A stretch of DNA of 64,000 nucleotides from Escherichia coli. GTDB lineage: Bacteria > Pseudomonadota > Gammaproteobacteria > Enterobacterales > Enterobacteriaceae. Of this stretch, positions 1-39,522 are shown one piece after another. The position numbers were made by a program, and so were the translations under genes. The notes under the pieces are model-generated. The model saw only the letters and a program-made list of their open reading frames with translations, had not been told where the DNA came from and made no database searches. The stretch lies in the NCBI RefSeq assembly GCF_041248615.1, contig NZ_CP158426.1; one strand, written 5' to 3'. How positions within the stretch are numbered: position 1 is the first letter of the stretch; every line of letters starts with the position of its first letter.

Positions 1-1006
1 CCAGCGGCATCGATTTTTTCATCTGACGAGCGACTTCAGCGGCGTCATCAATGATGATGCGGTAATGGCGGCGCGCGTTTTCACCCAACGTATGCACGAC
101 AAACTCGTCCAGTACGCGGAAGTAGTCGGCGCTCTCTTTCGGGCCGGTGAGGATCAATGGTAAAACCTGATCTTTGTTGGCCGGGTTCATTAAAATTCCC
201 AGCAAATACAGCAACTCTTCTGCCGTACCCACACCGCCAGGGAAGATAATGATACCGTGAGCGATACGGACAAACGCTTCCAGACGTTTTTCGATATCCG
301 GCATGATGATCAATTCGTTGACCAGCGGGTTAGGCGGTTCAGCGGCGATAATCGACGGCTCTGTCATACCAATAAAACGACTGTCTTTGTAACGCTGCTG
401 TGCGTGTCCGACCGCAGCGCCTTTCATCGGCGCTTCCATCGCTCCCGGACCACAGCCGGTGCAGATATTCAGCTCACGCAGGCCCAGCTGATTCCCGACG
501 CGACGGGCATACAAATACTCGTTTTCGTTAATTGAGTGCCCGCCCCAGCAGACCACCATATTTGGCGCTTCACCAACATGCAGCGCGCGAGCGTTACGCA
601 AGATGGAAAAGACCAGGTTAGTGATGTGGACGGAGTTGTCGAGATTCAGGTTGGGAAAACGAACAGTATTATGGATTTGCCCGTAAACGAAGAGAATGTC
701 GCGCAGAACCGCGAACAAGTTGGCCTGCAAAGCGCGAATAATTCGCCCATCGACAAAAGCCTCTTCCGGGGGATTAATCAGTTCCAGCTTTACGCCGCGT
801 TCACGGCGCAAGACGTTAATATCGAAATTTTCAAAACGAGACAGCAATTCTTTGCTGTTATCGGTCAAACTACCGGAGTTCAGTACGGCAAGTGAACAGT
901 TGCGAAACAGTTGATAGAGGTCGCTGCTGGCGGTGCGTTTAAGCATATCCACTTCCAGCTGCGACAACATATCCATGGAGCCAAGCGGGCTAATATGTGT
1001 AATCAA
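1..1006 (-). CDS. ppnN: Nucleotide 5'-monophosphate nucleosidase PpnN (LOG family), C-terminal part cut by window edge; probable TTG start at 1004-1006
   Basis: Minus-strand translation reads [19 protein letters not shown]...; frame open to window start; AGGAG 8 nt upstream of TTG; alternative ATG starts at 975 or 969. Confidence 0.8.
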
Positions 1007-1117
1007 GAAAAACTCCTTATGGGACGAATATCGTCATTCCCTTTGATTACAATAGCCCTGCCTGATGACCTTTCACAACCTTCTGCGTGAATCCAGCACG
1101 CAAAATTGAGAAAAAAT

Positions 1118-1966
1118 TTATTGCCGAACCAGTCTTGTGGTCGATGGGACAAAATCGCTATTACTGCGCCACGGGTTAATGTCCAGACCGCCACGACGGG
1201 TATAACGTGCGTAAACGCTCAATTTCTCTGGCTGGCAGAAGCGTAACAGGTCATTAAAGATGCGTTCCACGCACTGTTCGTGGAACTCGTTGTGATGACG
1301 GAAAGAAACCAGGTAACGCAGCAGTTTTTCTCTGTCAATTTGGCGTCCACGATACTGAATTTGGATCGATCCCCAATCTGGTTGATGGGTGATCAGGCAA
1401 TTTGATTTCAGCAGGTGGCTGACGAGCGTCTCTTCTACTACTTTTTCGCCACTGGTGGCATTCTCCAGATAGTCAGTAGTGAATTCATAGTTATCGATAG
1501 TGATATCCTGGTCATCAATGCAAGTGCCATTGAAATGACCTATCGGTTGGCCTTCCAGATCATCAAGACGATATAACGCCACGCTAACCTTACCCTGAGC
1601 GCAAGTGCTTAAGTCGCGCTCCAGCGTCTGGCGCACCTCATCCCAGTTATTAAAACGCGTCTGGTTAAAACTGTTGAGATAGAGCTTAAAACTCTTCGAC
1701 TCAATCAGATTTGCGCTGGTGTAATCAAGTGCAACATGACCGACGGCGACCTGCGGCAAACCTTTCGCATTCAGCCAGGAAAGTTCATACAGCGTCCAGA
1801 TATCCGTACCGTGAAAAGGCAGGTTATCCGCTTTCAGACCCAGCGGATCGCGATTCAGACTACGTGGAACGCCTTGCAGTAGGCTGGCGTCATAGGTATC
1901 CCGGTAATCGGTTGATTTTCCAAGAGTCAGGCCCGCAAGTGCCTGATGGTTTGCATAAGAAGACAT
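1118..1966 (-). CDS. queF: NADPH-dependent 7-cyano-7-deazaguanine (preQ0) reductase QueF
   Basis: 282-aa ORF, size and sequence consistent with E. coli QueF; synteny next to ppnN/syd. Confidence 0.9.
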
Positions 1967-2033
1967 GTTTCACCGTCATAAACCAGATAAACTAAACGAC
2001 AAGTGTATCTGGTTTAAGTGAAGAGAGAAATTA

Positions 2034-2579
2034 GTGGACGATTTGACCGCACAAGCCCTGAAAGATTTTACTGCACGCTACTGCGATGCGTGGAATGAAG
2101 AGCATAAAAGCTGGCCGTTGAGTGAGGAACTGTACGGCGTTCCTTCACCGTGCATTATTTCAACCACCGAAGACGCCGTATACTGGCAACCCCAGCCGTT
2201 TACCGGGGAACAAAATGTAAACGCGGTTGAACGCGCTTTTGATATTGTGATACAACCCACAATTCATACCTTTTATACGACTCAGTTTGCCGGGGATATG
2301 CACGCGCAGTTTGGCGATATTAAACTGACATTGCTGCAAACCTGGAGTGAAGACGACTTCCGTCGGGTGCAGGAAAATCTGATTGGTCATCTGGTGACTC
2401 AGAAAAGGCTAAAACTGCCGCCCACGCTATTTATCGCGACGCTGGAAGAAGAGTTAGAGGTGATCTCGGTGTGTAATCTCTCCGGTGAAGTGTGCAAAGA
2501 GACGCTGGGAACACGTAAACGGACGCATTTAGCCTCAAATCTTGCGGAATTCCTTAATCAACTTAAGCCTCTTCTGTAA
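2034..2579 (+). CDS. syd: SecY-interacting protein Syd (GTG start)
   Basis: 181-aa [23 protein letters not shown]...; divergent from queF. Confidence 0.85.
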
Positions 2580-2789: not shown

Positions 2790-3155
2790 GTCGACAGGGA
2801 GTCAGACAACGAAGTGAACATCAGGATGATGACACTTCTGAAGGACACACCAGGATGGTGTTTCAGGGAAAGGCTTCTGGATGAAGCGAAGAGGATGACG
2901 CAGGACGCGTTAAAGGACACCTCCAGGATGGAGAATGAGAACCGGTCAGGATGATTCGGTGGGTCAGGAAGGCCAGGGACACTTCAGGATGAAGTATCAC
3001 ATCGGGGTGGTGTGAGCAGGAAGCAATAGTTCAGGATGAACGATTGGCCGCAAGGCCAGAGGAAAAGTTGTCAAGGATGAGCAGGGAGCAACAAAAGTAG
3101 CTGGAATGCTGCGAAACGAACCGGGAGCACTGTGAATACAGTGCTCCCTTTTTTT
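2790..3155 (+). ncRNA. csrB: CsrB small RNA (CsrA-sequestering), 5' end approximate
   Basis: About 365 nt with many repeated CAGGATG / AGGA(U)G GGA motifs; ends in hairpin 3123-3148 plus T7 run 3149-3155; located between syd and yqcC. Confidence 0.85.
3123..3155 (+). terminator. Intrinsic terminator of csrB
   Basis: 11-bp stem GGGAGCACTGT/ACAGTGCTCCC, loop GAAT, followed by TTTTTTT. Confidence 0.8.
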
Positions 3156-3200
3156 ATTCCTGCTATCCTTCGCGGCAGTTTTTCTTATTGAGGTTGCTTT

Positions 3201-39161: not shown

Positions 39162-39369
39162 GCGAGCAGCATTCCTGATTTTAAACGTGAACGCCGCTGG
39201 AAGAATTATCAGGTATAGAATGGCGTTGGGTGCTTGAGGCTGTCTGGCGTTAAGCATTCGCGAGGTTCCAGATGGACAAAAGCCCCAGGCGATATTTCTA
39301 TCAACCTGAGGCCAGCGTTCGAACCTAAGCAATTCGAATGTTAGTCTCTTCTTTGCAGGGAGGCAAGAC

Positions 39370-39522
39370 ATGCTGACAAAATATGCCCTTGTGGCAATCA
39401 TCGTACTGTGTTGTACAGTACTGGGATTCACGCTGATGGTAGGCGACTCGTTGTGTGAGTTGAGTATCAGAGAACGTGGTATGGAGTTTAAGGCAGTTCT
39501 CGCTTACGAATCGAAGAAGTAG
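39370..39522 (+). CDS. Hok/Gef-family small membrane toxin (50 aa), HokE-like; not in ORF track because shorter than 60 aa
   Basis: [50 protein letters not shown]: hydrophobic N-terminal helix, conserved Cys, Hok signature ..LCE..R...E..A.LAYE; mRNA-like 5' GGGUGCUUGAGGC and 3' GCACCC plus T-run. Confidence 0.7.

Follow-up and report, generated by a model that had tools for sequence, protein, structure and literature searches.

A conserved TTG codon behind a strong Shine-Dalgarno sequence as the probable translation start of ppnN in Escherichia coli

In Escherichia coli, cyaA and rpsT are examples of genes that combine a UUG start codon with a Shine-Dalgarno (SD) sequence. Because UUG is discriminated against by IF3, it initiates translation less efficiently than AUG. 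Changing the cyaA UUG to AUG or GUG reportedly raised expression (work of Reddy et al. from 1985). The gene examined here, ppnN (also named ygdH), encodes a nucleotide 5'-monophosphate nucleosidase that is stimulated by (p)ppGpp (PMC6717881; bioRxiv 10.1101/2025.04.13.648610). The three-domain architecture of PpnN has been described, and its N-terminal DUF4478 domain contributes both to the pppGpp pocket and to contacts within the tetramer (PMC6717881). Papers on ppnN/ygdH contain no discussion of the start codon, and we found no experiments on it in the searchable literature. The TTG start itself is already known and is an ordinary feature of this gene, being present in the K-12 reference, in RefSeq, in the family models, and in the crystallised constructs.

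We analyzed the start region of ppnN in a stretch of 64,000 nt of E. coli DNA (contig NZ_CP158426.1), referred to as the window throughout. In K-12 MG1655, ppnN (b2795, NP_417275.1, 454 aa) is located at 2926308..2927672, and TTG makes up its first three bases. The window derives from a different E. coli strain, and its intergenic and 5' coding sequence are identical to those of K-12, with no start-site difference between the two. In a strain that matches the window at 100% identity, the RefSeq PGAP coding sequence begins at this TTG base as well. A 601-nt query around the ppnN start matched 5425 of 5426 complete E. coli genomes (5401 at ≥99% identity); the features under this match were queF and ppnN, and the best full matches included strain 2012C-4221. 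Within the window, the start region is composed of the following features:

1..1006, minus strand: first 335 codons of the ppnN coding sequence, which runs past the window start (full product 454 aa)
1004..1006, minus strand: TTG, the initiation codon of ppnN as annotated in RefSeq and K-12, and the first canonical start past the in-frame TGA
1013..1019, minus strand: Shine-Dalgarno sequence UAAGGAG of ppnN, 7 nt complementary to the 16S 3' end
1018..1013, minus strand: AAGGAG core of the same SD
1007..1012, minus strand: spacer TTTTTC, 6 nt, from SD to TTG
977..1003, minus strand: codons 2-10 (ITHISPLGS), lost with an ATG start
974..976, minus strand: Met11, the first in-frame ATG, without an SD and a false start in some annotations
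968..970, minus strand: Met13, the second in-frame ATG and a false start in some Shigella annotations
1034..1036, minus strand: TGA stop in the ppnN frame, 10 codons 5' of TTG, which bounds the frame upstream
1118..1966, minus strand: queF, the upstream neighbour of ppnN on the same strand

Along the minus strand, the end of queF (1118) is followed by a 111-nt spacer and then by ...GGGAATGACGATATTCGTCCCATAAGGAGTTTTTCTTGATTACACATATTAGCCCGCTTGGCTCCATGGATATG..., with the SD and start of ppnN reading ...CCCATAAGGAGTTTTTCTTGATTACACATATTAGCCCGCTTGGCTCCATGGATATG.... Between the TGA (1036..1034) and the TTG (1006..1004) the ppnN frame holds no ATG, GTG or TTG, so that TTG is the earliest possible start of the open reading frame, and from there the frame stays open as far as the window edge. 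A longer reading frame, in which this TTG would be an internal leucine codon, was ruled out by the upstream in-frame stops.

An earlier note on this DNA had placed a strong SD 8 nt upstream of the TTG. The SD is real, since UAAGGAG (1019..1013) pairs with the anti-SD at -8.8 kcal/mol and is the strongest SD-like site in 900..1117, while the gap needs correction to 6 nt. The note had also described the first in-frame ATG as lying 10 codons downstream and lacking an SD, and this was confirmed (ATG11, 976..974, -1.5 kcal/mol); the corresponding energies were -2.4 kcal/mol for ATG13 and +0.6 kcal/mol for the ATT at codon 5. Taken by itself, the motif AGGAG-N4-9-TTG does not stand out from chance in the window, with 5 occurrences observed and 8.3 expected from shuffles. 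What gives this copy its significance is its place at the start of a 454-codon reading frame, together with its conservation.

Judged from the sequence and its conservation, ppnN is very probably translated from the UUG at 1006..1004. The 30S subunit would be positioned by the 7-nt pairing of UAAGGAG, 6 nt upstream of UUG, and fMet-tRNAfMet would then decode the UUG despite a mismatch at its first position, giving the 454-aa protein. A strong SD at near-optimal spacing would in this way compensate for the weak UUG start. The initiator methionine is probably retained, because Ile2 provides a poor methionine aminopeptidase context.

PpnN matched the equivalog model NCBIfam NF038390 with 740.8 bits (cutoff 450), and residues 3-452 covered model positions 2-449 of 450. 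The three-domain architecture of DUF4478 (PAG1), LOG/Lysine_decarbox core, and PpnN_C (DUF3412) was present, with Pfam domains PF14793 at 4-109, PF03641 at 190-329, and PF11892 at 333-452; the DUF4478 alignment begins at residue 4, which is model position 2. The 335 PpnN residues encoded in the window were 100% identical to the chains of PDB 6gfl and 9hs1-3 over the aligned range. In the crystallised E. coli constructs (6gfl/6gfm, 9hs1-3) the N-terminal residues of PpnN are present after the tags, and the structures from V. cholerae (4npa, 2pmb) and Idiomarina (3bq9) align to E. coli PpnN from residues 2-3. An AlphaFold2 model built from a 12-sequence alignment had a mean pLDDT of 38 and allowed no conclusion on residues 1-10.

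To compare orthologs, we scanned one genome per species, which yielded 80 loci encoding PpnN from residue 1 in the Enterobacteriaceae, Erwiniaceae, Yersiniaceae, Pectobacteriaceae, Hafniaceae, Morganellaceae, Budviciaceae, Orbaceae, and Vibrionaceae. The per-position codon and entropy profile was based on 77 unique sequences, and spacers and hairpins were counted in 81 sequences. None of the 80 loci lacks the first 10 residues, and all 80 have a start codon at the position of the E. coli TTG, in agreement with the reference annotations and with the initiation codon that the earlier note had proposed. The homologous codon was TTG in 66 loci, ATG in 12 (Dickeya, Gilliamella, Enterovibrio, Vibrio, and Salinivibrio), and GTG in 2 (Proteus and an Orbaceae isolate); for the Enterobacterales alone, with taxa taken from record titles, TTG was found in 66 of 69 loci. 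Across the 77 unique sequences this codon varies at its first base only and is never CTG, TTA or CTN, and the internal Leu14 uses all six leucine codons. Within a protein, TTG, ATG and GTG would stand for three different amino acids, so that their interchange is the signature of an initiation codon.

The SD is similarly conserved, with (A)AGGAG at a fixed distance in nearly all of the 80 orthologous loci. Conservation upstream of TTG is limited to this element, the other positions having an entropy of ~1.9 bits. The spacer between SD and start measures 5-6 nt in 75 of 81 sequences; it is 5 nt in most relatives and 6 nt in E. coli and E. albertii. Most Enterobacteriaceae also have an in-frame TAA that overlaps the SD, 4 codons upstream of the start, and the extra spacer T in E. 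coli and E. albertii shifts this TAA out of the ppnN frame.

The profile also bears on whether translation could begin further downstream. ATG is the commonest start codon, with ~88% of annotated E. coli starts (PMC9825163), and the true start could accordingly be Met11 (976..974) or Met13 (970..968), in which case the SD and TTG would be coincidental and codons 1-10 an untranslated leader. This is extremely improbable given the constraint on the codons in question. From codon 2 onward, the entropy profile shows a three-base periodicity in which positions 1 and 2 are invariant or nearly so and position 3 is variable. Residues 2-12 are nearly invariant (I2, T3, P7, G9, M11, and D12 invariant, H4 and S6 nearly so), and codons 2-10 are conserved out to the Vibrionaceae and Orbaceae, where ATG replaces TTG. 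Furthermore, neither internal ATG is preceded by an SD, and Met13 is not a general start because codon 13 encodes leucine in 52 of 77 orthologs. Codons 2-4 (995-1003, minus strand) had unusually low synonymous variation, with ATT in 62, ACA in 64, and CAT in 64 of the 77 unique orthologs.

Met11 is invariant in 77 of 77 unique loci, which could point to dual initiation, with TTG giving the full-length protein and a minority of events at Met11 or Met13 giving a shortened isoform with altered regulation. Such a form could behave differently in view of the place of DUF4478 in the tetramer contacts and pppGpp pocket (PMC6717881), and E. coli has genes with alternative in-frame starts, speA among them (PMC9825163). 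However, no SD or A-rich enhancer lies ahead of Met11 or Met13, the INRI-seq alternative-TIS entries covered here list no ygdH peak at +30 or +36, and a role in the protein would account for the invariance of Met11 just as well. We consider a second product from these codons scarcely credible and retain initiation at TTG as the preferred reading.

The internal ATG codons have nonetheless been chosen as the start in several deposited annotations. Among the best 120 protein clusters, lengths were mostly 454-455 aa, and five clusters were truncated to Met11 or Met13. In an exact-sequence look-up, the 444-aa (Met11) truncation of the K-12 protein was found on at least 208 contigs, and the full-length version on at least 1000. 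The 444-aa version occurs in GenBank (including ABJ02222.1 and AFG41732.1), JGI, ENA, and Logan records, whereas the exact 442-aa (Met13) version was found on 8 contigs, with Shigella flexneri 5 str. 8401 and 5a M90T as the named sources; ABF04754.1 and EID63002.1 are further truncated E. coli/Shigella accessions. Thus, the expectation that callers preferring ATG would shorten the protein is borne out by deposited records. These records do not argue for an internal start: three truncated metagenome calls, whose contig DNA we checked, retain an intact SD, TTG, and ITH(I/V)SPLGS directly upstream. Several Pectobacterium calls are over-extended and read through the homologous TTG codon, which is therefore present there too. 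The value of the present analysis lies mainly in annotation hygiene, as the 444- and 442-aa truncations persist for E. coli, Shigella, and metagenomes, and the residues missing from them belong to the conserved N-terminal domain that takes part in the tetramer contacts and the pppGpp pocket.

Published initiation profiling placed a further candidate start within the first codons:

992..994, minus strand: ATT, codon 5 of ppnN, the alternative translation initiation site (TIS) of INRI-seq

In the part of the INRI-seq Table S3 covered here, ygdH has an 'alternative TIS' at ATT, +12 nt and in frame, with 188 CPM in 4 replicates, and the in vivo Ribo-RET entry for the same position is weak, with a score of 5.28 (PMC9825163). 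These entries would fit the near-cognate ATT of codon 5 (994..992) as the only start or as an additional one, and a protein begun there would be 4 residues shorter. The +12 peak does not match initiation at TTG or at either ATG, and we did not count it as evidence against TTG. INRI-seq assigns the 3' end of a footprint to a start-like codon 15 +/- 3 nt upstream (PMC9825163), and Table S3 holds many in-frame ATT, CTG, and ATC calls at +3 to +15 beside annotated starts. This suggests that such near-cognate calls are an assignment artefact, or reflect ribosomes stalled only after moving on by a few codons. For ppnN, a start at ATT is very improbable: the SD would lie at a distance of 18 nt, with no other SD available (0.6 kcal/mol), codons 2-4 (I-T-H) show amino-acid constraint with synonymous variation and are thus translated, and codon 5 is a non-start codon (GTC, GTT, GTA or CTC) in 11 of 77 orthologs. 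Initiation at TTG remains the preferred reading. With regard to other N-terminal data, ppnN/ygdH was absent from the TetRP supplement (PMC4909307), the TRAINSPOTTER N-terminomics supplements (PMC13245402) held no match to the PpnN N-terminus, and a full-text literature search with the N-terminal tryptic peptide string gave no match.

Directly upstream of the SD, folding of the leader predicted a small structure:

1021..1041, minus strand: predicted hairpin GGGA-A-UGA / CGAUAU / UCG-UCCC, which ends 1 nt 5' of the ppnN SD

A predicted folding energy of ≤ -4 kcal/mol was reached by the 26 nt preceding the SD in 58 of 81 sequences, compared with 29 of 81 for control segments taken 40 nt further upstream (Wilcoxon p = 1.4e-6, not phylogeny-corrected). 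The 3' end of the hairpin lies 0-4 nt from the SD across sequences, and no U-tract is attached to it. Its stems differ by family, and include GGGA/UCCC, CACCC/GGGUG, CACGC/GCGUG, GCCCC/GGGGC, GCAUC/GAUGC, UGUGC/GCACA, CGCAA/UUGCG, and CCCC/GGGG. No consensus hairpin emerged when RNAalifold was applied to a MAFFT alignment, because stem registers and loop lengths differ, and a second alignment of Enterobacteriaceae, in which one mis-cut sequence was included, was not structure-consistent for the hairpin. Against Rfam, the region 850..2100 gave no match even at E ≤ 1; elsewhere in the window, gathering-threshold matches to Rfam were obtained for the CsrB sRNA (2799-3158, plus strand, 382.9 bits) and the sok antitoxin RNA (39228-39385, plus strand, 111.7 bits). 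It is possible that the predicted hairpin is part of the initiation region, where it could serve as a 5'-terminal stabiliser or as a structure that presents the SD.

Inside the hairpin lies a mini-ORF, ATG ACG ATA TTC GTC CCA TAA (1037..1017, minus strand), of seven codons, whose stop overlaps the ppnN SD and which is probably fortuitous. We rejected it as a uORF since its ATG is missing in many Enterobacteriaceae and the SD-like AGGGA is too close.

Further upstream, TGTAATCAA (1051..1043, minus strand) is a perfect 9-nt complement of TTGATTACA (1006..998), which consists of the start codon and codons 2-3. The predicted mRNA fold pairs both arms, UUG included, with P(unpaired) of 0.19 for -6..+2. 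Such pairing, if real, would reduce initiation. The upstream arm falls in the block GGCTATTGTAA (1057..1047, minus strand), which was found in 30 of 30 Enterobacteriaceae-type loci. Since both arms of the repeat are invariant, they offer no covariation. In two species, the segment of the arm opposite UGA is altered. In Citrobacter werkmanii the GGCTATTGTAA block lies ~123 nt further upstream (1327-1337 in its locus, L007, vs. 1450-1460 elsewhere), which implies an insertion between block and hairpin. The GGCTATTGTAA block may act by pairing with the start region or, just as well, be a -10 element (TATTGT). A consensus scan of the leader returned no minus-strand terminator or promoter, the Cappable-seq supplements gave no site at 29262xx, and in the part of the Term-seq table covered here the only 3' end listed is located after ppnN, with none at the hairpin. 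Just past the queF stop there is also an imperfect 9-nt inverted repeat, TTTTGCGTG...CACGCAGAA (1081-1105, minus strand), without a U-tract.

One could speculate that TTG, the SD-abutting hairpin, and the GGCTATTGTAA block form a conserved, expression-limiting leader that gates PpnN by transcript or condition, though we regard this as unlikely. In transcripts that contain the block, such as those reading through from queF, the start codon would be sequestered by the 3' part of the block, which is complementary to UUG-AUU-ACA. Transcripts that start just downstream of the block would carry only the 5' hairpin and would be translated. If true, this would place a (p)ppGpp-controlled nucleotide-degrading enzyme under an additional transcript- or condition-specific control.

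The retention of TTG across the Enterobacterales can be set against the substitution seen at silent sites of the same gene. Four-fold degenerate sites at codons 7, 9, and 19 are near saturation (1.6-1.8 bits), and the persistence of TTG against this background suggests, in a comparison that is not corrected for phylogeny, that TTG is favoured and not just tolerated in the Enterobacterales. Its near-universal occurrence there may reflect selection for a modest level of a nucleotide-degrading enzyme.

Compared with E. coli, the PpnN of Vibrionaceae and Orbaceae has the same N-terminus (M-I-I/T-Q/H-V/I-S-P-A/L-G-S-M-D-L-L; V. cholerae, PDB 4NPA/2PMB), and the SD of these loci lies at the same distance. 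Their start codons differ, with ATG in 10 of 11 loci, GTG in 1, and TTG in none, and, unlike in E. coli, most of their leaders lack the SD-abutting hairpin. The use of TTG in Enterobacterales and ATG in Vibrionaceae/Orbaceae makes ppnN a small example of a conserved non-AUG start. Among E. coli genes, ppnN is alike to cyaA and rpsT in that a weak UUG start is combined with an SD.
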